Shown here: piece after piece, positions 1,708-64,000 of the stretch
How positions within the stretch are numbered: the first letter of the stretch is position 1
Layout: the number at the start of each line of letters is the position of its first letter
Assembly: GCA_022822725.1 (NCBI GenBank)
Contig: JAJEAN010000007.1
Location: forward strand, 1,125,045-1,189,044
From: Candidatus Latescibacterota bacterium
Lineage (GTDB): Bacteria; JAAXHH01
DNA length: 64,000 nt
Direction: 5' to 3'
Translations under genes and position numbers: made by a program
Notes under the pieces: model-generated
The model's database searches: none
Told to the model about the DNA's origin: nothing
Seen by the model: only the letters and a program-made list of their open reading frames with translations

Positions 1708-2799
1708 TCAGAACCTCAAGTGTTCCCTGACCAGTTCCGCGCGCCGCTCATCCAGTTCCTCCGACGTCATTTCCCGGCCCGAGGCCATCCGGATGTGCGC
1801 AGGCTGTATCGCTATCATCAACTGGTTGAATGCACTGGTCTCCATGCCCTGGATGATGCCCACAAACGTGCCCATCCTGAGCATGGACAGCGCATCCAGC
1901 GCTTCCATCTCCCCTAGCAACCGGGCATGCTTCAGCAGTCCGTATGCCCGGGCCACTCTGTCCTCCGTCCGGCGTTTCGCCCGGCTTGCCAGGGCGTCGC
2001 AGGCCCGTTCCTCGAAGGAGGCCAGCCGGCGCGTGACACGGTCGAGCCGGTCGACGATCTCCTCCTCGGCGTGTCCCAGGGTGCACTGGTTGGACACCTG
2101 GTACATGTTGCCCGACCGTCCGGTGCCTTCGCCGTGCAGTCCCCGCACCGTGAACCCGATTTCCTCCAAGGCGCATCCCAGGGAAGCCATCTGGTCCGCC
2201 AGGGTCAGACCCGGAAGGTGCATCAACACCGAAAGGCGCATCCCGGTGCCCGTGTTGCTGGGACAGGACGTTAAATAACCAAACTCATCCGAGAAGGCAA
2301 AATCAAGTGTTTTGCTCAGTTCGGTATCGATTTTGTCCGCTTCCTGCCAGGCGGCGCGCACCTGCAGGCCACCCTTTATGGTCTGGAGGCGCAGGTGGTC
2401 TTCCTCGTTCACCATGAGGCTGAAGGTTTCGCCGGGGCCGATGAACACGCCGGCGGGCCGTGTGCCGTCCGCCAGGGACGGGCTGATCAACCGTCTTTCC
2501 ACCAGCACCCCGCGATCCAGTTCGGACGTGTCGAGCAATGAAAGGTACACCGACCTCGCCACGTTCTCACCGCGTTGGACGGCGTTTTCCACCTGTTCGA
2601 TCACACGGAACCGTTCGTTCTTGATCGAACGGTGCACGAAGGGCAGGGTGGTCAGGTTCCGCGCCAGGCGGGCCCGGCTGCTGACCACCAGGTCCGCCGT
2701 TTCGCCTTCGGGCACGCACCATTGCGGCACGTCGACCAGCAGTTCCGTGTACAGGTTTTCCATTGCGTTGTCCATGAGCCTGTCCATGGGCCTATCCAT
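1708..2799 (-). CDS. mcsB: Protein-arginine kinase McsB (ATP:guanido phosphotransferase family)
   Basis: 363 aa ORF with the phosphagen-kinase signature CPSNTGTGMRLSV and SSRARLARNL. It overlaps the mcsA stop by 8 nt. Confidence 0.85.
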   Translation of the reverse strand: MDRPMDRLMDNAMENLYTELLVDVPQWCVPEGETADLVVSSRARLARNLTTLPFVHRSIKNERFRVIEQVENAVQRGENVARSVYLSLLDTSELDRGVLVERRLISPSLADGTRPAGVFIGPGETFSLMVNEEDHLRLQTIKGGLQVRAAWQEADKIDTELSKTLDFAFSDEFGYLTSCPSNTGTGMRLSVLMHLPGLTLADQMASLGCALEEIGFTVRGLHGEGTGRSGNMYQVSNQCTLGHAEEEIVDRLDRVTRRLASFEERACDALASRAKRRTEDRVARAYGLLKHARLLGEMEALDALSMLRMGTFVGIIQGMETSAFNQLMIAIQPAHIRMASGREMTSEELDERRAELVREHLRF

Positions 2800-3941: not shown

Positions 3942-5267
3942 CTATTCGTGCCGGATCGCCTCGACCGGGACCAGGCCGGCGGCCTTCCGGGCCGGGTAGA
4001 CGGCGGCCATCACGCAGATCAGCATGGATCCCAGGGCGACGCTGGCGAAATCCAACGGGTCGACCTGCACGGGCAACGCGTCGATCAGGTAGATGTCCGG
4101 CGGCAGCGAAATAAACTCGAAGGTGCGCTGCGTCCAGCAGAGCACGTACCCGGTCGCGCATCCGAACAAGGTACCCAGGACGCCGACTACAGAACCCTGG
4201 ATGATGAATACCCTGGTGATGCTGGCGGCGGTGGCCCCCATGGACTTGAGAATGCCGATGTCCCGGGTCTTCTCAAGCACGACCATGATCAGGGTACTGG
4301 CGATGTTGAAAGCGGCCACCAGGATGATCAGATTGAGTATGGCGAAGGCGCCCCATTTCTCAAGTTCCATCCACCGGAACAGGCCCTCGTGCCGCTGCAT
4401 CCAGTCTACCGTAAAATACGCCACGGACGGGCTTGACGCAACAGGTGATTCGGCAGTCTCCTCCGCATAACGGTTCAGGGCGGCCTCGATCTCATCGGCG
4501 ATACGCCCCGCCTGGTTCCGGTCGGCGACCCGGACGGCAATGCCGTTTATGTCGCTCCCGAGTTTGAACAGCTTCTGGGATTCGGCCAGGGAGACATAGG
4601 CGGAGGAGGCGTCGTACTCGTAGAACCCGGTCTCCGAAATGCCCGTTACCCTGTAGGGCCGGATATAGGGCATGAGCGCCGATGTGAGCGAAAAGCCCTG
4701 GATGTTGCCCAGGGCCACCCTTTCGCCGACGATGATCCCCAACTGGTCCGCCAGGCCCCGGCCCAGGACGATACCGGGCAGCGGCCTGCCGTCCGGATTG
4801 GCCGGATCGGGCGCGGCCGTCAGGTCCAGGGCGCCGAAGGCGATGTTTTCCTCGAGGTTCGTGGCCAGGCGGCCCGTAGCGATGTCCAGCCCGTGCACGA
4901 TGACGCCTGCCGCCGCATTGCGCGTCGTGGGCACCGGTGCGCAGACGGCTTTCTCCAGCACGTAAGGCGAGGCCGATACCACGTCGTCCACCGACAGGAT
5001 GACGTCGATCAACGGGTCGTACCCGGAAATGGAACCATCACCGAGCAGCGAATACACATTGATATGCGCGCGCTCTCCGATGATCCGTTCCCGGACTTCG
5101 CTTTCAAAGCCGTTAAACAGGGAGAGGACGATGACGAGCGCGGCTACGCCCACCAGCACGCCGCCCACGGATATGTAGGTTATGAGAGAGACGAACCGGT
5201 TCTGCCGCTTGGCGCGCAGGTATCTCAGGGCGATGAACCATTCATATGACCATCGTTTACGCAGCAC
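3942..5267 (-). CDS. FtsX-like ABC permease, LolC/LolE family
   Basis: N-terminus ..RWSYEWFIALRYLRAKRQNRFVSLITYISVGGVLVGVAALVIVLSLFNGFE resembles LolC/E; large periplasmic loop; C-terminal FtsX helices. The start is uncertain (GTG at 5267 or upstream ATGs in the 509 aa track ORF). Confidence 0.75.
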   Translation of the reverse strand: MLRKRWSYEWFIALRYLRAKRQNRFVSLITYISVGGVLVGVAALVIVLSLFNGFESEVRERIIGERAHINVYSLLGDGSISGYDPLIDVILSVDDVVSASPYVLEKAVCAPVPTTRNAAAGVIVHGLDIATGRLATNLEENIAFGALDLTAAPDPANPDGRPLPGIVLGRGLADQLGIIVGERVALGNIQGFSLTSALMPYIRPYRVTGISETGFYEYDASSAYVSLAESQKLFKLGSDINGIAVRVADRNQAGRIADEIEAALNRYAEETAESPVASSPSVAYFTVDWMQRHEGLFRWMELEKWGAFAILNLIILVAAFNIASTLIMVVLEKTRDIGILKSMGATAASITRVFIIQGSVVGVLGTLFGCATGYVLCWTQRTFEFISLPPDIYLIDALPVQVDPLDFASVALGSMLICVMAAVYPARKAAGLVPVEAIRHE

Positions 5268-18529: not shown

Positions 18530-19801
18530 TCACCGGGAACGCCTGAACGACTCTGGAATCACCCGCTGCGCCGCTTCGACCACGCGTTCTTCCACACCGT
18601 CGGCGAAGCGATTGGGCAATCCGAAATACACGGTGGCGTCGCCGGCTTCGTACCCGCCCTCCTTCCAGATCCGCCGGGAGGGTATGTAGCCGGGAAAATC
18701 GTTGGCGTACGCGCCTATCCACAACCTGGTGGGATCGTACATGCGCCTCAGTCTGACGGCATAGTCCGTGACGACCTCCCCCGCCAGGAAGACGATGGCG
18801 AGTTCATCTCCGAACGACCAGCCCTGGACCGGATAGCTGAGTGCTTCCGGGACCTTTTCGCCGCTGTCCATGCGGGTGATCCACTTCCGGGCGTGGTAGC
18901 CCGCGGCGCCTTCCTCCTCCGCCGCGGCCGTCCAGGCCTCTCGCGTAGGCAAGGCGTCGTAGGGCAGCGAGGCGTGGACCAGGCGGCACCGGATCTGTCC
19001 CGGCAAGGGGCGTCCGGGGATTTCGAGCAGGCGGTCCACTTCCCGGGCGATATCACCCCCGTGACGCCGGGAAAAGGAAAGGCCCGTGCGGGGAAAGGGA
19101 TTCGCGTTGGCGGCGCACCCGATGGTGACCAGGGCAACGGCTCCCGGGTGGTTCCGCTTGATCGATTCGGCCGCGAATCCCGCCCAGTCGCCGCACATGA
19201 AGTTGTCCGCAGGGCCGAATGTCGTGCAGTGGCTGGCATAGCTGACCCACACCGCCCTCGGGTTTCCTTCCGGATCGTCGACCCGTATCATGGGCATCAC
19301 GTGATCCACGGGTCCGATCTGCGCGCGCCGGTTGACCGCGAACCCGGCGTGTCCCTCGCTGTAACTCAGGCGGGACGGACTCCGGTTCGACAGCGCACGC
19401 AGTCCCACCTCCACGAGCCGTTCCGTCACTTCACCGGTATAGCGGTCGATATGCCGCTGGTGCGCCGCCGGGATATCCGTGCTGAACAGCATGGGCGCCG
19501 CGCCGGACAGCATGGGCGCGTTGTGGGTGTGGGTATAGCACAGGACGATGCGTTCCCGGTCAATCTTCGCCCGCCTGCCCAGTTCGCGCGCGACAGCCGC
19601 CGTCATCGATTCGGTCACGCCGCAGTTGTCCAGGGCCAGCATCAGGACCGGCCGCTCAGAGCCGAGGGCCAGGGCGCGGGCATACAGGGGCGACTTGATC
19701 TTCGCCGTTTCTTCCCTGCGTGCGCCGTAACCACTCAGGCGCACCGGGTAGTCGGGGGTTACGTCGACTTCGGACACGCCGACCGGGATCAGTTCGCTCA
19801 T
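18530..19801 (-). CDS. Neutral/alkaline ceramidase N-terminal-domain-like hydrolase
   Basis: 423 aa resembling Pfam Ceramidase_alk N-terminal domain. No signal peptide. Convergent with the preceding gene with only a 3 nt gap. Confidence 0.55.
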   Translation of the reverse strand: MSELIPVGVSEVDVTPDYPVRLSGYGARREETAKIKSPLYARALALGSERPVLMLALDNCGVTESMTAAVARELGRRAKIDRERIVLCYTHTHNAPMLSGAAPMLFSTDIPAAHQRHIDRYTGEVTERLVEVGLRALSNRSPSRLSYSEGHAGFAVNRRAQIGPVDHVMPMIRVDDPEGNPRAVWVSYASHCTTFGPADNFMCGDWAGFAAESIKRNHPGAVALVTIGCAANANPFPRTGLSFSRRHGGDIAREVDRLLEIPGRPLPGQIRCRLVHASLPYDALPTREAWTAAAEEEGAAGYHARKWITRMDSGEKVPEALSYPVQGWSFGDELAIVFLAGEVVTDYAVRLRRMYDPTRLWIGAYANDFPGYIPSRRIWKEGGYEAGDATVYFGLPNRFADGVEERVVEAAQRVIPESFRRSR

Positions 19802-57238: not shown

Positions 57239-58000
57239 TCAGTAGAGGCCCGGTACCAGGGCCCTGCGATTTGCCGGATAATCGCTGAACGTTTCCCGGT
57301 ACCATCGGTGGTTGCTCCGTGCCCGCGGGGCGAGATTGGCGATGGCGAACAGCATGAATGCAAGGCCGCACGACGACCAGGTGGCGACCGCCCAGCCTGC
57401 CCATTCGAGGATTTCCCCCAGGTAGTTCGGACACGAGACGAAGCGGAACCCGCCGCCCCGCGGTATCGCATAGCCCGTCTCACCGGGCCGGCGCAGGCGC
57501 ATGAGCGTGTTGTCGGCGTGGAGGTTGAGCGCGAACCCGGCGAGGAATATCCCGACCCCGATCAGGAAGCGGGGGTCGGCGATCCATTCAGTGGCGTACT
57601 CGCCGAATTCCGAAACGAAGCGGGCGTTGATGTACGCGTTGACCGCATTGAACAGAAAGCCGGAGCCGACCACCACAAGGGGCGTCTTCCGGCCGCTTGC
57701 CCGGACACGAAACGGATAGACGAAGGTCCGGTTCAGATAGTGGCCCTGCCACATGGCCAGGAACAGCAGCGGCACGAACTGGAACGCGCCCTTGCCATTG
57801 AGATAGACGACGAGGAAGACCGCGGGTGCCGGCAACTCCATGATGATCCACGCGAGCCTGGCGGAAACGTGTGGCCCCCAGCCCGCACCCGCGTAGTGGC
57901 GTCCGTAGGGCGCGGTCCTGCGTAGCAGGTACAGGAACGTCACGGGCGCCGACGCAATGATCGCCCATATCAGTATCCCGTGCAGACGTTCTTCGGTCAT
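57239..58000 (-). CDS. Steroid 5-alpha-reductase/DUF1295 family membrane NADPH reductase
   Basis: 253 aa, about 6 TM, C-terminal FRFVSCPNYLGEILEWAGWA typical of 3-oxo-5-alpha-steroid 4-dehydrogenase C-terminal domain. Its start abuts the upstream stop (58000/58001). Confidence 0.7.
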   Translation of the reverse strand: MTEERLHGILIWAIIASAPVTFLYLLRRTAPYGRHYAGAGWGPHVSARLAWIIMELPAPAVFLVVYLNGKGAFQFVPLLFLAMWQGHYLNRTFVYPFRVRASGRKTPLVVVGSGFLFNAVNAYINARFVSEFGEYATEWIADPRFLIGVGIFLAGFALNLHADNTLMRLRRPGETGYAIPRGGGFRFVSCPNYLGEILEWAGWAVATWSSCGLAFMLFAIANLAPRARSNHRWYRETFSDYPANRRALVPGLY

Positions 58001-59029
58001 TCACGCCTCTTCACTCAGCATGCCGTGTTCGTCGAACCAGCGGTACGTGTCCTCTATCGATTCCGCGAGCGAGCGCGGGTTGAACCCGAGTTCCGCCCGC
58101 GCCTTGGTGCTGGATATCCGCCGATTGGCATGGGCCATGACGCGGACGGATGCTGGCGTGTAGAGCGGAGGACGTCCACGAAACCGATCCAGGACGACCT
58201 GGAAGGGTGCCCATACCCGGGCGGCGAAAATGGGGAACTGGAGGCGGGGTGCGGCTACTCCGGTCGCCTGCTCGCAAAGCTCCGCCAGTTCTTGCACGGT
58301 GTGCCAGTTTCCTGACAGCAGGTAGTTCTCTCCACATCTCCCCTGAGTCTCTGCGGCTATCGCGGCCGACGAGACATCGCGCACGTCAACCCAGTCGTAA
58401 CCACCTGCGATCAGCGCGGGAAGCCGCCTGCGGCGGAGGTCGAGAAACAGCTGCCCCATCGGCGACGGAGCGCCGTCATAGGGGCCGATCACGCTGGTCG
58501 GATTCAGGATCACGGCATCGAGGCCGCGGTCGATGCCGCAACGGACTTCCGCTTCGCCGGCGGCTTTCGAACGGTCGTAAGGCGCGGCGCGGCGGCTGTC
58601 GGCCGGACGGCGGCTTTCATCGAGCACTTCGTCCAGCGGGTGCTGGTCGAACGCGTGGATGGAGGAAACGTGAACCAGGCGCCGTACACCGCATGCAAGG
58701 GCCGCTTCCACGACATTGCGGGTGCCCAGGACATTCGTGCGATGGAAATCCCGGGCCCTTACGGTGCCGATCGAGACCAGCGCGGCCAGATGGAACACGG
58801 TTTCCGCGCCCGTGAAGGCCGCGATCAGCGATTCCTTGTCGAGCAGGTCGCCATTGACCCATGTAATGCCGAGATCCGCCACGGTCCCTCGACGCTTCCG
58901 GAAGGTCGCACGGACCCGGCGGGGCCCGTACTTGTCGGCAAGAGCCCGTGCCAATACCCCGCCGATCTGCCCGCTCGCACCCGTAATCACCCGTACGCTG
59001 TGAGGCCGTCCGTCGTCAGATGATCTCAT
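58001..59029 (-). CDS. Extended-SDR, 3beta-hydroxysteroid-dehydrogenase/NAD-epimerase family
   Basis: ATG at 59029; ITGASGQIGG; NVLGTRNVVEAA (3beta-HSD-like); YDRSK catalytic dyad. Confidence 0.7.
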   Translation of the reverse strand: MRSSDDGRPHSVRVITGASGQIGGVLARALADKYGPRRVRATFRKRRGTVADLGITWVNGDLLDKESLIAAFTGAETVFHLAALVSIGTVRARDFHRTNVLGTRNVVEAALACGVRRLVHVSSIHAFDQHPLDEVLDESRRPADSRRAAPYDRSKAAGEAEVRCGIDRGLDAVILNPTSVIGPYDGAPSPMGQLFLDLRRRRLPALIAGGYDWVDVRDVSSAAIAAETQGRCGENYLLSGNWHTVQELAELCEQATGVAAPRLQFPIFAARVWAPFQVVLDRFRGRPPLYTPASVRVMAHANRRISSTKARAELGFNPRSLAESIEDTYRWFDEHGMLSEEA

Positions 59030-59094: not shown

Positions 59095-61122
59095 TCAGGT
59101 TCGCAATTCGTGCCGCTGCTCGGCGATCCTGAACTTTAGTTTGTTGCTGGGCGACTGCGAGGGGAAGGGGTCCATCGGCAACCGCTTGTAGGGGCGGGCC
59201 AGTTCGAGCTTGTAGTAATGCGTGAGCATCAGCAGGTTGATCGCCATGTGCATGTTGGCCCATCGGTGCCCGAGACAGGAGTGCGTGCCCAGTCCGAAAG
59301 GCGCGTAGCCTTTGCCAAGGTGCTCGTTTCGCGGGGGCACGTAGCGGTCGATGTCGAAGGTCTGTGGATCGGGAAACGCCTCTTCCAGGTAGTGCGTGGC
59401 CGTCTGTGCAATCACGAGTTGCGTCCCGACCGGTAATTCGAAACCCACCACCACGCAGGTATTCATCACCGTGCGCATGGCCATGGGCGCGATCGGACTC
59501 ATCCGCAGCGTCTCCATCAGCACCCGGTGGGTCACGTCGATCCGGTCCGGCTTGAAGTCGTCCTCGCCGGGATCGCCATCAGCCCACAGCGCGTCCGCTT
59601 CGGCCGTGACCCGCTCGTACAGATCAGGATTCTGCAGCAGCCAGTAAAGGGCGAAGCCAACCTGGTCGCCCAGGTACATGGCGGTCATCAGGATCGCCCC
59701 CAGCGGCAGCGACAGGTCCGATTCGGGAAGGAACTGGGGATCCGTCGCGTGCAGGGCCAGATACGCGTCCACCACGTCCTTATGCATCCCGACCCTTTGC
59801 GCGGCCGTATGTGTACTTTGCATACGTTCCATGATCCGTTTCATGGTTTTAGCCCGACGGCGCATCGACGGGGTTTTGAGCATGAAACGCGGCAGCATCT
59901 TCATGATGCCTACATTGAGCACCCGTGCCTTGTATTTAAGCGCGTCGACGATCTCGGCCTGCGTGTCAATGCTGGCGAAGAGCGGCGAAGACTGCGCGTT
60001 CAGCAATGGCCGCAGCATCACCTGCGACGGCATCGTGCTGCCGACGTCCCAACCCGCCATGTGCGCGCGGGTCAGGTCATAGACCTCGTCCAGGCGGTCG
60101 GTCAAGGTCTTGCGAGAGTATGCGGGCTGGAGCGACTTGCGAAAACGAAAGTGATCGGCCCCGTCAACCGAATGCATCGAGCGCGACACGCCGTACGCCC
60201 TGTCCACCTCCTCGAAGTACTCCTTGGACCGCAGGAACACGCGCCCCATGCGTTGGGCCCATTCATTCGTCTTCACCCCCGCCAGGAAGATGATGTTCTT
60301 GCGGAACGGGATCCGTAGCTCGAACACCGGACCATACTTTTCAGCCAAAATGGCGAACGCTGACGGCAGCCTGCCCGCTATCAGCTCGCGGTTGAATACC
60401 AGGTCACGCAGGGCCACGGCTGGAATCGGCTTGGTCAACGAGGGCTGGCGAAGCGAGGGCGCGACGATGCTCTGGCCCACCGCCGCCGCAATCGCCCGCC
60501 CGATCAGTTCCATCTTGCAGATAAATTCAACCCGCTCTTCCGCCTCCTCATCCAGTTGGAAAATGAAGCGCATGACATCGCAGGTATTTAACAGGCAAAT
60601 AACGATGATGTCTCTGGGCTCGGGAATCTCGTTCAGGAAGATCGCCTTGCTGATGCGCGTCTTGATGAATTGGCCCGCGCTACCTTCCTGGGAGTCGCTG
60701 GACTGGTCCGTGTGCCAGACAGAAGGAGCCAGTGTCCAGAAGTCGCCCTCGTGGTGTTCCAGGATCTTCTGGTCAACCATGCGATCAAGCACGGAATCTA
60801 TGATAGACTCCGCACGGGGAGCGAGTTTTTCTATCCAGTACTGCGTGTTGTGTTTAACGGATTCGCTTGCGATTTCTTCCAGTATGTCGTCCAGGGTGGT
60901 GTTTCCCGTTTCCCTCCGGTCCACCAGGAACAGGGACTCCATGTCCGTATCGATGCGAGATCTCAGCGAAAGTTCCCCGAGCACCGCGCCGACCACGGCG
61001 CAGTTCAGATTCCAGCCGGGCACCTGATGGAAGTACCCCGTCTCCTCGTTGAGGAGCATCAGGATGAATTCCTGGGTCAGCGTTAATGGTTGGGTCTTCA
61101 CTGCTTCTGTAGGAGTAGCCAT
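59095..61122 (-). CDS. Fusion protein: N-terminal GPP34/GOLPH3-like domain plus C-terminal cytochrome P450
   Basis: ATG at 61122 with GGAG upstream. Residues ~10-230: PLTLTQEFILMLLNEETGYFHQVPGWNLNCAVVGAVLGELSLRSRI aligns with the GOLPH3 motif [44 protein letters not shown]. The C-terminus carries ETLR, FDIDRY and heme-loop FGLGTHSCLG. The I-helix reads LGDQVG (no conserved Thr). Confidence 0.7.
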   Translation of the reverse strand: MATPTEAVKTQPLTLTQEFILMLLNEETGYFHQVPGWNLNCAVVGAVLGELSLRSRIDTDMESLFLVDRRETGNTTLDDILEEIASESVKHNTQYWIEKLAPRAESIIDSVLDRMVDQKILEHHEGDFWTLAPSVWHTDQSSDSQEGSAGQFIKTRISKAIFLNEIPEPRDIIVICLLNTCDVMRFIFQLDEEAEERVEFICKMELIGRAIAAAVGQSIVAPSLRQPSLTKPIPAVALRDLVFNRELIAGRLPSAFAILAEKYGPVFELRIPFRKNIIFLAGVKTNEWAQRMGRVFLRSKEYFEEVDRAYGVSRSMHSVDGADHFRFRKSLQPAYSRKTLTDRLDEVYDLTRAHMAGWDVGSTMPSQVMLRPLLNAQSSPLFASIDTQAEIVDALKYKARVLNVGIMKMLPRFMLKTPSMRRRAKTMKRIMERMQSTHTAAQRVGMHKDVVDAYLALHATDPQFLPESDLSLPLGAILMTAMYLGDQVGFALYWLLQNPDLYERVTAEADALWADGDPGEDDFKPDRIDVTHRVLMETLRMSPIAPMAMRTVMNTCVVVGFELPVGTQLVIAQTATHYLEEAFPDPQTFDIDRYVPPRNEHLGKGYAPFGLGTHSCLGHRWANMHMAINLLMLTHYYKLELARPYKRLPMDPFPSQSPSNKLKFRIAEQRHELRT

Positions 61123-61467
61123 CAGCCTCAGTCTCCCTGCATGATATCCAAACCATCGGCCAATCGCCCTTGTTGCACTTGTAGTTAAGGTAATACTCGG
61201 GCCTGGGGGCAGCAAGTCATATTTTGGTCAGGTTCAGGCTCGGGACAGTGTCGGGGAATGGCCCGCCACAGGTCGATCGGCGACCGAATCGCTAAACCCT
61301 GTGCGAGCATCCTCTACCAGGGAAGCTTCCCGCCCGCCCGGCCGGCGTTTCAGGAATGTGCGCGATGGCGCGCGTCTGAAATCCGCTTGGGAAACGGCAA
61401 CGGCTTCAGGCCGATGTTGCTTCACGCATATTCTATCTCGGTCCACCGTCGCCGTGTGCAATTTTAC

Positions 61468-61550: not shown

Positions 61551-62639
61551 ATGCCTATGAACAGGAACACTACCGATCGGATCGCCGAACCTGTCGCAGG
61601 CAAAGCTGCCAGCCGTCCAGCCACCGACATGCCGGATCGACTGCCTCCCTTCCCGGAAGGCTGGTACCTGGTTACATCCCGCAAGACCCTGCTGCGCGAG
61701 AAGCTGATCGAGAAGAAGTGGATGGGTGAGGATATCGTCGCCTGGTGTGACGAGCAGGGCCGTACCTGCGTAGCCGACGCCGTCTGTCCGCACATGGGCT
61801 CGCACCTGGGCCCGGCCGTTGGCGGGCGGATTTGCAACGGCCGCCTCGTCTGCCCGTTCCACGGATTCGAATTCGACGCGACCGGCAAGTGCGTAGCGAC
61901 GCCGAACGCGCCGGCCCCGAAAGCCGCCAGACTAAGCATATACGAGACCCGGGAGATCTTCGGCCTGGTCTTCGCCTGGTACGGAATCGGCGGAAGGCCG
62001 CCGCAATGGCACCTGCCTGGCGAACCGCCCACCGACACGGAATGGGGCGAACTGGGATTTCTGAACCTCAGGTTCCGCAGCCATCCCCAGGAAACCGCGG
62101 AGAACTCGGTGGACTTAGGGCACCTGCGGTACGTGCACGGGTACGACAATGTTAATCCGGTCGGATCGGTTGAGGTGGAAGGCGCGTACCTGAGAAGTGG
62201 TTTCGAATTCAAGCGCGTCCGCAGGATCCTGGGACTGACCGACATGGTCTACGAAGTCTCCGCGGTCGCGCATCTTTACGGACTGGGCTACTCTTTTGTC
62301 GAAATCCACGAGAAAACTATCGATATGCACGCGAGATTCTGGGTCCTTACTACCGCTGTCGACGGCACCCACATAGATCTCGTATTGGCAAGCCAGTTGC
62401 AGGAAATCCGAAAGCCCCGGCGGTTCATTTCGGGCCTGGGTTTCCTGCCATCGAAGCTGCGCCAGAGACTGATGAACCGGATTCTGCTTGCACAGCAGAA
62501 AAGGGATGTGCTGCAGGACGTGGTGATCTGGGAAAGGAAGCGGTTCAGGACGCCTCCCCGGCTGTGCAAGTCCGACGGCCCAGTCGGACTGTTTCGCCGC
62601 TATTGCCGGCAATTCTATCCTGAATCATCCATGGACTGA
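61551..62639 (+). CDS. Rieske [2Fe-2S] non-heme-iron mono-oxygenase alpha subunit (KshA/SdmA/Neverland-like, single-component type)
   Basis: Rieske CPHMGSHL..CPFHG; mononuclear iron motif D-x2-H-x4-H (DLGHLRYVH); 362 aa. Confidence 0.8.
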   Translation: MPMNRNTTDRIAEPVAGKAASRPATDMPDRLPPFPEGWYLVTSRKTLLREKLIEKKWMGEDIVAWCDEQGRTCVADAVCPHMGSHLGPAVGGRICNGRLVCPFHGFEFDATGKCVATPNAPAPKAARLSIYETREIFGLVFAWYGIGGRPPQWHLPGEPPTDTEWGELGFLNLRFRSHPQETAENSVDLGHLRYVHGYDNVNPVGSVEVEGAYLRSGFEFKRVRRILGLTDMVYEVSAVAHLYGLGYSFVEIHEKTIDMHARFWVLTTAVDGTHIDLVLASQLQEIRKPRRFISGLGFLPSKLRQRLMNRILLAQQKRDVLQDVVIWERKRFRTPPRLCKSDGPVGLFRRYCRQFYPESSMD

Positions 62640-62738: not shown

Positions 62739-63614
62739 CTAACCACCTTCCTCCAGCTCCGCCAGGGCTTCCAGAACGTCCTGCAGGATGAACTCGTCGT
62801 AGGCATCCCGTACCGGTAGTCCGGCCGCCTTCGACAGCAACGCCCCGGCCCGCTCACGGCCGCCCTCGCGGTCGAGTTCAGGAAGATTGAGCGCATACTC
62901 CAACAGTATGACCCTCGAGTCCGGTGCGAGTTCCAGCGCCCGCTCGAAGTGGCTGATGGCGTCCTCGCGATTTCCTTTGTACAAGAACCGGGCGATACGT
63001 CCGGCACTGGCGATGCCGGCGTGCCAGCTACCCAGGGCCATGTGCGTCTGGGCGAAGTCGGGACTGATGGCGAGCGCGTCTTCGAGCAGACCCCGGATCT
63101 TGCCCGCCAGGCCCCGGCGAAGTGCCGTGATCTTTCCGACGCTCTGGGCATATCGTCCAACGGCGTGCGCGGACCGGTAATACGCTTCGGCATTGGCCGA
63201 ATCGGCACGCACCGCCTCCTCTCCCAGTTTCATCGCGCGTTCCAGGAACTCCTTCCGGTCATCCCCGACCGCCACGTGGTGACCGTACACCGCGAGCGAT
63301 TGCGCTGCCAGGGCGTAGCCTTCGGAGGTGCCCAGGGCTTCCGCGAGATCCGCCGCTTCGAGAAAGCGGCCTTCCTCGAATGCGGTCCGCGCTTCGTCAA
63401 CCTCGAGAAAGCGGCCTTCCTCGAATGCGGTCCGCGCTTCGTCAATCGACTGGGCGTTCGCGTCGGCAGCGCCGAAGAGGCTGGCCGCGCCGACCAGGCT
63501 GGCCGCACCCGTCCCGCCGACCAGGCCGGCTGCGCTGGCCAGGCTGAGCAGGCCAGCCGCCAGGAGCACGAATCTGCCGGTCGCCGCGAATAGAACATAT
63601 CGGATTTGGGTCAT
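62739..63614 (-). CDS. Secreted tetratricopeptide-repeat protein
   Basis: Signal peptide followed by an Ala-rich linker and TPR-like helices. It contains a 15 aa perfect duplication. Confidence 0.6.
   Translation of the reverse strand: MTQIRYVLFAATGRFVLLAAGLLSLASAAGLVGGTGAASLVGAASLFGAADANAQSIDEARTAFEEGRFLEVDEARTAFEEGRFLEAADLAEALGTSEGYALAAQSLAVYGHHVAVGDDRKEFLERAMKLGEEAVRADSANAEAYYRSAHAVGRYAQSVGKITALRRGLAGKIRGLLEDALAISPDFAQTHMALGSWHAGIASAGRIARFLYKGNREDAISHFERALELAPDSRVILLEYALNLPELDREGGRERAGALLSKAAGLPVRDAYDEFILQDVLEALAELEEGG
63358..63447. repeat. 45 bp x2 perfect tandem duplication inside the TPR gene
   Basis: tcgagaaagcggccttcctcgaatgcggtccgcgcttcgtcaa(c/t)c x2, encoding DEARTAFEEGRFLE(V/A) twice. 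Confidence 0.9.
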
Positions 63615-63781: not shown

Positions 63782-64000
63782 TCATCCATGCGCCGGAACC
63801 TGTTCCTGTGCGGCCGCAAGACCCTTGGATCCGCCGCGCAAGGCGATCAACCGCTGATGTATGGAGGACAGGGCGGGGACGACCACCATCAGGATGGCCG
63901 TAGTGAAGAGAATACCGCACCCGAGGGACGCGGCGAAGGGGATCAGGAACTGGGCCTGTATGGCGGGTTCCAGGATGAGGGGCATGAAGCCGAGGAACGT
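63782..64000 (-). CDS. C-terminal fragment of an RND/MMPL-superfamily-like transporter (the gene continues beyond the window)
   Basis: ..[51 protein letters not shown].., a hydrophobic terminal TM pair typical of RND C-termini. Confidence 0.35.

Follow-up and report, generated by a model that had tools for sequence, protein, structure and literature searches.

The window, a 64,000-nucleotide stretch of a Candidatus Latescibacterota genome, carries a GPP34–cytochrome P450 fusion gene at 59095..61122 on the minus strand, where a single unbroken open reading frame encodes 675 aa plus stop. The frame is open from either 61215 (TTG) or 61122 (ATG) and terminates at 59095–59097. Judged from the sequence, the ATG at 61122 is likely to be the translation start because the Shine-Dalgarno-like motifs GGGAGA and GAGG lie 4–15 nt 5' of it and homologues of ~675 aa begin there. 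This element (GGGAGA...GAGG; 61126..61137, minus strand), identified by sequence inspection, represents a putative ribosome-binding site. The upstream TTG is unlikely to be used since homologues start at the Met of the ATG at 61122.

Domain analysis places a GPP34/GOLPH3-fold domain at residues 15–215 (60478..61080, minus strand; PF05719, 100.6 bits against a cutoff of 29.1, E 1.6e-28), where the match spans profile positions 1–198 of 201 and is joined by Foldseek matches and a profile alignment to 3kn1 and 9qpq. A cytochrome P450 domain with a class-II/CYP51-like fold occupies residues 254–655 (59158..60363, minus strand; PF00067, 112 bits against a cutoff of 22.8, E 4.1e-32). Between them lies a short, low-confidence linker at residues 222–228 (60439..60459, minus strand; pLDDT <50). 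Family alignments show a conserved I-P motif after the linker, which opens the P450 N-terminal region, and P234 is invariant. The P450 motifs quoted in the preliminary description are all present, namely ExxR (E537/R540), FDIDRY and the heme-binding loop FGLGTHSCLG (59269..59298, minus strand) with Cys616 as axial ligand, and each is invariant or near-invariant across the family. A regex search found this loop to be the only one of its kind in the window, and C616 is invariant. The I-helix oxygen-activation segment, MTAMYLGDQVGF, covers residues 479–490 (59653..59688, minus strand), as defined from column counts and unaligned segments. A search of NCBIfam returned no equivalog for the fusion, with the best matches, pentalenene oxygenase and ApyO, far below cutoff.

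The AF2 model of the fusion is compact and comprises two domains (pLDDT 89.1, pTM 0.83), with pLDDT <50 limited to residues 1–10, 135–146 and 222–228. This model was built on a 98-sequence alignment with diverse members from a profile search; a shallow alignment (66–95% identity) left the P450 half at pLDDT <50. The fusion proposed in the preliminary description is therefore real, with both domains above their Pfam cutoffs in one open reading frame and two folded domains joined by a short linker in the model.

Inspection of the flanks reveals that the fusion heads an operon that continues with an SDR and a steroid 5α-reductase. The SDR, an NAD(P)-dependent Epimerase/3β-HSD protein of SdmB/HpnA-like type (58001..59029, minus strand; PF01370, PF01073), follows the fusion on the same strand after 65 nt and is co-located with it in 6 related loci. 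Its NCBIfam scores are 218 bits for HpnA and 204 bits for SdmB (SdmB cutoff 600), both below cutoff. The start of the steroid 5α-reductase family membrane enzyme (57239..58000, minus strand; PF02544, E 1.8e-50) abuts the SDR stop (TGAATG), and the protein scores 278 bits to bacterial SRD5A 7C83 and 154 bits to human SRD5A2 7BW1. Divergent from the fusion, across a 428-bp intergenic region, lies a gene for a Rieske [2Fe-2S] oxygenase with a KshA-type C-terminal domain (61551..62639, plus strand; PF00355, PF19298). Its best PDB matches are KshA (71–79 bits), and it scores 34.6 bits against SdmA (NCBIfam cutoff 600). Because their scores are far under the cutoff of 600, the SDR and the Rieske protein are relatives and not orthologues of SdmB and SdmA. 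Further along is a TPR protein (62739..63614, minus strand; Pfam TPR matches), whose gene is found near the fusion in 8 loci from Latescibacterota, Thermodesulfobacteriota and Dadabacteria. By eye, the N-terminal hydrophobic stretch in its translation resembles a signal peptide. Neither a redox partner (ferredoxin/reductase) nor further sterol genes were found in the rest of the window.

Breadth and earlier description of the family

Over 2,000 protein clusters share the ~675-aa GPP34–P450 architecture, some of them on megabase contigs. The best 120 matches from one search (66–95% identity) and the best 120 from another (31–61% identity) are without exception two-domain proteins of ~660–690 aa, and many of these 240 listed homologues are located on 1–7 Mb contigs. 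In 51 genome loci, spread over about ten phyla, the fusion is contiguous. An assembly or frameshift artefact is ruled out because thousands of contiguous homologues have the same architecture, many on long contigs, and their like length also disposes of a frameshift-merged gene pair, an error that the preliminary description had raised. The nearest genomes to the fusion are Ca. Latescibacterota MAGs (96% identity), and the closest loci come from MAGs of Latescibacterota, Poribacteria, Ca. Poriferisodalis, Dehalococcoidia, Binatia and Dadabacteria, lineages typical of sponge microbiomes. Several paralogues of the fusion are present per genome, also in tandem. Standalone P450 relatives of ~440–460 aa are found at 30–37% identity.

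The domain combination had been taken as undescribed, which fails in light of the 656 GPP34+P450 proteins, termed GPP34_L, reported from many phyla and all from sponge symbionts (Ferreira et al. 2025, Microbiome 13:4, PMC11706023). That study analyzed flanks for the short GPP34 form only, proposed no P450 substrate and favored PI4P binding with phagosome evasion. The product of 59095..61122 has PF05719 followed by PF00067, ~675 aa and a spread over several phyla in common with GPP34_L, may come from the same kind of host organisms, and by its architecture is a member of the published group. Beyond what was published for GPP34_L, its gene has flanks indicative of sterol metabolism, and the protein lacks the PI4P pocket residues. 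That is to say, the GPP34–P450 architecture is already known, while the sterol-gene setting and the loss of PI4P-pocket residues look new. No link of GPP34 to sterols was found in the searchable literature, nor was anything relevant found there on sulfotransferases with sponge-symbiont sterols.

The GPP34 domain and the P450 catalytic center

In the AF2 model, the GPP34 domain consists of a helical core and a β-hairpin at residues 121–131. Foldseek comparison of the modelled N-domain gives TM 0.64 (9qpq_B) and 0.60 (3kn1) for GOLPH3 and 0.52 for Vps74 (2zih), and the GPP34-family profile matches GOLPH3 3kn1 at E 1.8e-5. The domain thus resembles GOLPH3/Vps74 (3KN1, 9QPQ, 2ZIH) in its helical fold with β-hairpin (TM 0.52–0.64) and its Pfam GPP34 match, and a predicted role as a peripheral membrane adaptor would be a further likeness if the docking proposed below holds. 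In contrast to GOLPH3/Vps74, with which it shares 16–20% identity, the domain is acidic (pI 4.6), is fused to an enzyme and is found in a bacterium, which has no Golgi.

Binding of PtdIns4P by GOLPH3 needs W81, R90, R171 and R174 (Wood et al. 2009, PMC2806290). The three arginines are replaced by V, E and I in the fusion. The R90 equivalent is V44, a position that is V/A/I in the family and basic in 0 of about 140 sequences; the R171 equivalent is E105, near-invariant E/D by column counts; and the R174 equivalent is I108, which is Ile in this clade. The sole pocket residue roughly kept is W81, which corresponds to W37 with an offset of 0–2 residues by alignment. At the sequence level, the GOLPH3-type PI4P pocket is dismantled in the fusion. 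Sequence inspection also found no signal peptide on the protein. The PI4P tethering envisaged in the preliminary description is consequently unsupported, because R90, R171 and R174 are lost and the pI is 4.6.

In eukaryotic microsomal P450s, an N-terminal transmembrane anchor leads through a Pro-rich hinge into a class-II-type fold. The fusion has these parts in the same order, beginning with an N-terminal element that is predicted to target membranes. Unlike the transmembrane helix of microsomal P450s, this element is a ~215-residue soluble domain whose membrane binding we infer.

An acid–alcohol pair in the I-helix (AGx[DE]T) is typical of P450 O2 activation, though not obligatory. In the fusion, the acid and Thr positions, anchored on the conserved F490, are held by M482-Y483, and Y483 is Tyr in all clade sequences examined. 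The earlier observation that the Thr is missing is true clade-wide, but the register assigned to it (LGDQVG) was off by a few residues. Distant paralogues retain H-T or E-T (AG-L-H-T or VG-I-E-T), and the I-helix of a middle subfamily reads AGHY(T)GS. With Met-Tyr in place of acid/Thr, the clade may activate oxygen differently or catalyze an unusual reaction.

Among solved P450s, CYP51 is nearest in sequence (79 bits, 20–25% identity) and also ranks among the top structural matches (TM 0.81, Foldseek), with structural closeness to sterol P450s barely above that to BM3, CYP184A1 and CYP170A1. CYP51 and CYP46-type sterol P450s are distant relatives of the P450 half, a heme-thiolate enzyme. P450 nomenclature assigns proteins to the same family at an identity of at least 40%. 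Classification as a true CYP51 was rejected, as identity lies below this value and both AG(Q/H)HTS and the B'/B'-C loop motifs are missing; in the alignment to 6mi0, AMYL-GDQ faces AGHHTSS, and conservation is lacking in the B' region. The Methylococcus capsulatus CYP51–ferredoxin (6MCW, 7SNM) is likewise a bacterial fusion protein, and CYP51 acts on sterols. The present protein differs from it in having an N-terminal GPP34 instead of a C-terminal ferredoxin, Tyr in place of the I-helix Thr, no CYP51 signatures and an identity of 20–25%.

Sterol-type genes around the relatives

A sterol-type neighbor is present in 41 of the 51 loci and absent from 10. Neighbors in other phyla include oxidosqualene cyclase (OSC), squalene epoxidase, sterol methyltransferase (SMT), ERG4/24 reductase and sterol-sensing MMPL transporters, where the cyclases have the oxidosqualene-type DCTA motif and squalene epoxidase lies adjacent. 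A Rieske gene is found in 22 of the 51 loci, in 19 cases immediately upstream of the fusion and in divergent orientation, and again in locus L057. An amine-oxidase/phytoene-desaturase-like flavoprotein is a neighbor in 15 loci. MMPL scores are partly HpnN-like, below the NCBIfam cutoff. Taken alone, neither a Rieske nor an MMPL gene is specific to sterols. Among the distant-paralogue loci, one of seven (L055) is without informative context.

Known sterol clusters include sdmA/sdmB with SMT (Brown et al. 2023, PMC10070321), the 'CSG' ERG24–CYP51–LSS (Kelly et al. 2022, PMC9531527) and the msb cluster (PMC7074536). These bacterial and sponge-symbiont clusters resemble the present loci in their NAD(P) reductase and Rieske pair, ERG24-type reductase, SMT, and squalene epoxidase with OSC. 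They differ in that no GPP34-fused P450 is mentioned in those papers. The CYP51 of the Kelly et al. clusters is probably not the GPP34 fusion, given a 1,698-nt alignment versus 2,025 nt as compared by description, and msbD of the Melophlus cluster is described as an ordinary demethylase (PMC7074536).

The lipid substrate suggested in the preliminary description is plausible because the gene neighborhoods point to sterols. From these neighborhoods, we infer that the P450 substrate is a lipid, most likely a sterol.

Proposed function and competing explanations

On balance, we lean toward the cytoplasmic GPP34_L enzyme being a sterol-tailoring P450 with a GPP34 docking or presenting module. The P450 half would oxidize a sterol or sterol-like triterpenoid, whether symbiont-made or host-derived, and the fusion would act with the SdmB/3β-HSD-like dehydrogenase, the steroid 5α-reductase and the divergent KshA-like Rieske oxygenase. 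GPP34 immediately precedes the Pro-rich hinge, the place of the membrane anchor in microsomal P450s. There, it most likely docks the soluble P450 on the bacterial membrane or a membrane partner, or presents the sterol for hand-off, and any such docking would be independent of a GOLPH3-type PI4P pocket. Several observations run against sterol tailoring, including the 10 of 51 loci without a sterol-type neighbor and the uninformative L055, SDR and MMPL proteins that are also HpnA/HpnN-like, structural matches near BM3, CYP184A1 and CYP170A1, and the ferredoxin/reductase partner not found in the window.

In actinobacteria, CYP125, KshA and 3β-HSD start sterol degradation. A catabolic role, where the P450, KshA-like Rieske and 3β-HSD-like proteins begin to degrade host sponge sterols for carbon, is unlikely here. 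KshA is the nearest solved relative of the Rieske protein and the operon pairs a 3β-HSD family match with a Δ4-3-ketosteroid 5α-reductase; however, KstD, Hsa ring-cleavage and side-chain β-oxidation genes were not seen in the window or the loci, and recurrent neighbors are biosynthetic (OSC, squalene epoxidase, SMT, ERG4/24) or serve export (MMPL, RND, ABC). It also seems quite unlikely that the fusion is the symbiont sterol 14α-demethylase, a divergent CYP51 joined to GPP34. Identity of 20–25% falls below 40%, the I-helix His-Thr and B' signature are lost in the clade, and several paralogues per genome with tandem copies are unlike a housekeeping CYP51. Moreover, sponge-symbiont sterol clusters are reported with their own shorter CYP51 (1,698 versus 2,025 nt; msbD). 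These points outweigh the position of CYP51s as best PDB sequence matches (79 bits) and among the top structural matches, the OSC, squalene epoxidase and ERG4/24-family reductases as neighbors, and the resemblance of the sister-subfamily AGHY(T)GS to the CYP51 AGHHTSS.

The published proposal of a secreted effector, where GPP34 binds host phagosome PI4P and blocks maturation with the P450 as an accessory (Ferreira et al. 2025), draws on the GPP34 fold and Pfam membership and on a published distribution confined to sponge symbionts, of which the phyla here are typical. We consider it very unlikely for this protein, where three of four PtdIns4P residues are replaced (the R90 position being basic in 0 of about 140 sequences) and the acidic domain (pI 4.6), without signal peptide, is covalently joined to a heme enzyme needing reducing partners. 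Furthermore, its gene shares an operon with integral-membrane steroid enzymes and has sterol biosynthesis genes adjacent. Least probable of all is a non-sterol lipid substrate (hopanoid, carotenoid-like polyene or fatty acid) with coincidental sterol-type neighbors. CYP184A1 and BM3, close structural matches, are fatty-acid-acting P450s, the SDR scores best as HpnA-like, MMPL is partly HpnN-like, and the amine-oxidase/phytoene-desaturase-like flavoprotein lies beside the fusion in 15 loci. In contrast, all HpnA/HpnN NCBIfam scores are under cutoff, the cyclases have the oxidosqualene-type DCTA motif beside squalene epoxidase, and Sterol_MT_C, ERG4/ERG24 and SRD5A are domains associated with sterols or steroids.

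Extending the sterol-tailoring explanation to the whole family is more tentative. Instead of reading PI4P, GPP34 may serve sterol-tailoring oxygenases (P450s, occasionally Rieske) by docking them on the membrane or presenting sterols to them, with symbionts as major modifiers of sponge sterols. If true, the paralogues and adjacent methyltransferases, reductases, sulfotransferases and exporters would be the means of that modification, with products possibly stanols and hydroxylated or sulfated steroids, and the clade whose I-helix Thr has become Tyr would catalyze a P450 reaction outside the canonical type.

The only published hypothesis, a PI4P effector that blocks phagosome maturation, conflicts with the sequence, and in one P450 clade of the family, Tyr takes the place of the catalytic Thr. 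Sterol tailoring would bear on the role of the GPP34 domain in bacteria and provide a natural case of a soluble domain replacing a P450 membrane anchor. If the enzyme is sterol-tailoring, it would also bear on which organisms produce and alter the unusual sponge sterols, a question underlying the use of 24-isopropylcholestane and related steranes as the oldest animal biomarkers.

The GPP34–P450 open reading frame and its relatives

The GPP34–P450 fusion occupies one open frame on the minus strand, with its stop codon at 59095–59097 and possible starts at TTG 61215 and ATG 61122. ATG 61122 is the likely true start because it is preceded at 4–15 nt by Shine-Dalgarno-like motifs, GGGAGA and GAGG, and the fusion homologues, ~675 aa in length, share this first Met. 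Pfam places both proposed domains in the frame well above their cutoffs, GPP34 (PF05719) at residues 15–215 (100.6 bits, cutoff 29.1, E 1.6e-28) and p450 (PF00067) at residues 254–655 (112 bits, cutoff 22.8, E 4.1e-32). The frame contains the ExxR motif and heme loop FGLGTHSCLG named in the preliminary description, and across the fusion family C616, E537 and R540 do not vary. An AlphaFold2 model (98-sequence alignment; mean pLDDT 89.1, pTM 0.83) depicts two domains, with pLDDT below 50 only at residues 1–10, 135–146 and the linker, 222–228. The modelled N-domain resembles GOLPH3 (TM 0.60–0.64) and Vps74 (TM 0.52).

An assembly or frame artefact was rejected on the basis of contiguous two-domain homologues. 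The best 120 clusters listed by a word-indexed search (66–95% identity) are every one ~675 aa with both Pfam domains, and several matches are located on 2–6 Mb contigs. At E ≤ 1e-30 the matches of a profile search number at least 2,042 clusters, and each of the 120 listed (31–61% identity, plus cluster P0001) has both domains. An exhaustive representative search gave ~45 full-length representatives at identities as low as ~25%, and the fusion is encoded contiguously in 51 genome loci.

The architecture is already known, and the preliminary description was wrong to call it undescribed, since cytochrome P450 is the second domain in 656 of 663 long-form GPP34 proteins ("GPP34_L") of sponge symbionts, which also have a short form (Ferreira et al. 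2025, Microbiome 13:4, PMC11706023). In the same study the long form was seen in sponge symbionts alone, spread over many phyla; its authors noted rare GPP34+Rieske and GPP34+ABC fusions, reported P450 genes ≤5 genes away from short GPP34 genes, and proposed GPP34 to be a secreted protein that binds PI4P of the host. Our loci agree with the sponge-symbiont picture: Ca. Latescibacterota MAGs supply the nearest ones (96% identity), and remoter ones belong to Dehalococcoidia, Ca. Poriferisodalis (L022, Acidimicrobiia), Binatia, Dadabacteria, Thermodesulfobacteriota and Poribacteria. Poribacteria were given the short form only (PMC11706023), whereas locus L032 (664-2682) encodes the long form in a MAG labelled Candidatus Poribacteria (isolate Plut_88885, 4-kb contig).

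Several genomes seem to have more than one paralogue, some in tandem. Two fusion genes adjoin in several Thermodesulfobacteriota and other loci (L030, with Cys loops at 4886 and 7813; L040; L049; L056:10001-14295). In L056 the second copy is in two parts, a GPP34 fragment of 97 aa and another of 551 aa, perhaps through a frameshift. The homologues P0055 and P0294, each on a 5,387,818-bp contig, suggest two paralogues of one genome. Standalone P450s of ~440–460 aa (P0167, P0180, P0191, P0200) matched the P450 half only, at 30–37% identity and 200–300 bits, and are much closer to it than CYP51 is; these could be unfused relatives or the P450s reported beside short GPP34 genes.

The lipid pocket and the I-helix

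In GOLPH3, W81/R90 and R171/R174 line the sulfate/PtdIns4P pocket, with W88/R97 and K178/R181 as the Vps74 equivalents, and alanine at these residues abolishes binding (Wood et al. 2009, PMC2806290). Equivalences were drawn from a 22-sequence N-domain profile aligned to GOLPH3 PDB sequences, with numbering in agreement at W81, R90, R171 and R174. Position 44, equivalent to R90, is V/A/I in 43/43 members of the window protein's clade and A/V/S/T/G in 45 wider representatives, and is never basic. The R171 equivalent, position 105, is Glu in all 43 clade members and mostly D/E in the wider set. R174 corresponds to position 108, which is Ile here, I/T/L/V across the clade, and Arg in none but the most distant subfamily. 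W81 corresponds to a Trp at about position 37, shifted by 0–2 residues from one alignment to another. The GPP34 domain of the window protein is acidic (pI 4.6; 37 D+E versus 20 K+R), and neither a signal peptide nor a TM segment was found in the protein sequence. Given the lost pocket residues, the acidic domain and the lack of a signal peptide or TM segment, the sequences do not support a canonical PI4P mechanism for the family. The initial interpretation holds in part: the fusion is real, and the PI4P-type tether, like the novelty of the architecture, is not upheld.

Inspection of the I-helix divides the family into three subfamilies. Distant members (≤35% identity to the window protein) carry A-G-L-H-T or V-G-I-E-T, that is, a CYP51-like His-Thr or canonical acid-Thr; the middle group (39–45%) carries IAGHY(T)GS, comparable to CYP51 AGHHTSS; and the window's clade (≥54%) carries (M/I/V)(T/A)(A/S/G)(M/V/A)-Y-(L/M)-G-D. 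When the conserved F490-x-L-Y sets the register, Tyr483 falls at the Thr position and is Tyr in all clade sequences examined, and Met/Val/Ala takes the acid/His position. The acid–alcohol pair is indeed missing, as first described, with the original register slightly off, and its loss implies a putative altered proton delivery or non-standard reaction in the clade.

Gene neighbourhoods of the fusion

Within the window, an NAD(P)-dependent SDR of the Epimerase/3β-HSD family (58001–59029) begins 65 nt after the fusion; its HpnA-like and SdmB-like scores, 218 and 204 bits, both fall short of the cutoffs. The SDR stop and the start of a steroid 5α-reductase gene (57239–58000; PF02544, E 1.8e-50) run together as TGAATG, and the reductase matches the bacterial SRD5A structure 7C83 at 278 bits and human SRD5A2 at 154 bits. 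Divergent from the fusion and 428 bp upstream lies a Rieske oxygenase with a KshA-type C-terminal domain (61551–62639), whose top PDB matches are KshA (71–79 bits), and beyond it a TPR protein (62739–63614). The TPR gene holds a perfect 45-bp in-frame tandem duplication (63358-63445; 2.0 copies, 100% match) that doubles the peptide DEARTAFEEGRFLE(V/A); the Latescibacterota homologue at L001 has a single copy. An AcrB-type RND pump adjoins the TPR/Rieske/fusion cluster in the closest relatives (L001:253-3471, L002-L004, L006) and would lie just past window position 64000. The other ~57 kb is unrelated metabolism, where a second P450, an obvious ferredoxin and further sterol genes were sought and none found. 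Also in the window are an ATP:guanido phosphotransferase (1708-2799, minus strand; PF00217, E 4e-60) and a neutral/alkaline ceramidase-like ORF (18530-19801, minus strand; PF04734, E 1e-10), both of families better known from eukaryotes.

Neighbour ORFs of the 51 fusion loci were clustered, and recurrent clusters were annotated and counted within ±6 kb of the fusion. A KshA-like Rieske gene occurs at 22 loci, 19 times directly upstream and divergent as in the window. The other recurrent neighbours are an MMPL transporter with a sterol-sensing domain (PF12349/Patched SSD; 21 loci), a FAD amine-oxidase-like flavoprotein (15), sterol C-24 methyltransferase (Sterol_MT_C; 12), a TPR protein (8), ERG4/ERG24 sterol reductase and an SdmB-like SDR (6 each), squalene epoxidase (5), a triterpene cyclase with the oxidosqualene-type VTDCTAE motif (4) and steroid 5α-reductase (3). 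At least one sterol-type neighbour is present at 41/51 loci and at least one strictly sterol-specific gene at 21/51; by rough estimate, assuming ~10 such genes per genome of 3–5 Mb, a sterol-specific gene would be expected in only a few per cent of 12-kb windows placed at random. The flavoprotein, the third most frequent neighbour, is amine-oxidase/phytoene-desaturase-like (PF01593; e.g. L015:4463-5932). A conserved ~450-aa protein without a Pfam match (L034:1879-3225 and five other loci) is a repeated neighbour of the fusion, SMT and ERG4/24 genes in loci of Dadabacteria and Thermodesulfobacteriota.

Seven loci of remoter paralogues (31–44% identity) were examined with Pfam-annotated neighbours. 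L057 repeats the divergent Rieske/KshA_C arrangement and has an RND efflux system, and in L053 the fusion lies directly between OEP–MFP–AcrB (upstream) and an ERG3/ERG25-type FA_hydroxylase (downstream), with an MMPL-SSD protein also present. Paralogues at 31–35% identity to the window protein are flanked by sulfotransferases: three in a row directly upstream in L054 (6241-9982), one adjoining in L052 (11996-13057), and one adjacent in L058 (12201-16503), together with APS-kinase/PAPS genes and three more P450s. This hints that a lipid is hydroxylated and then sulfated. L052 and L056 also carry ABC exporters, AcrB and an acyltransferase–ankyrin protein, and the L055 neighbourhood is uninformative.

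A candidate sterol-tailoring P450

Published sponge-symbiont sterol clusters comprise SMT with sdmA/sdmB and OSC (Brown et al. 2023, PMC10070321), ERG24–CYP51–LSS "CSGs" in 115 Ircinia MAGs (Kelly et al. 2022, PMC9531527), and the msb cluster of SDR, Rieske protein, sterol reductase, demethylase and fused epoxidase/cyclase (PMC7074536). GPP34 is absent from the accounts of all three, and our literature search found no relevant paper joining GPP34, sterol and bacteria. The published sterol-cluster CYP51 alignment spans 1,698 nt, shorter than the 2,025-nt fusion gene, so the fusion is probably an additional tailoring P450 rather than the cluster's demethylase. The pocket loss, the Thr-to-Tyr clade and the sterol-gene neighbourhood are additions for which no literature counterpart was found, and each is directly testable.

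The best-supported reading, held with slightly better than even confidence, is a cytoplasmic, membrane-associated, sterol-tailoring P450. A place in sterol catabolism, weighed with both the KshA-like Rieske genes and the squalene epoxidase and cyclase genes in view, is unlikely. A divergent CYP51, to which the I-helices of the other subfamilies bear some likeness and which the length comparison disfavors, seems a little less likely again. We doubt still more a PI4P effector, the role proposed in print for GPP34; the pocket residues for it are replaced. Least probable is action on a non-sterol lipid; strictly sterol-specific genes recur beside the fusion.

On the sterol-tailoring reading, the role of the GPP34 domain would be to dock the P450 to a membrane or membrane partner, or to present substrate. 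It holds the place, before the Pro hinge, that the anchor occupies in microsomal P450s, and this conserved hinge residue ahead of the P450 (P234) is invariant. Reasoning from known enzyme families and from sponge steroid chemistry, the fusion and its operon partners could plausibly convert Δ5-3β-hydroxysterols to Δ4-3-ketones and then to 5α-reduced, further oxygenated products. The sulfotransferase and exporter genes near its paralogues raise the possibility that the family supplies steroids, hydroxylated or sulfated, to an export route.
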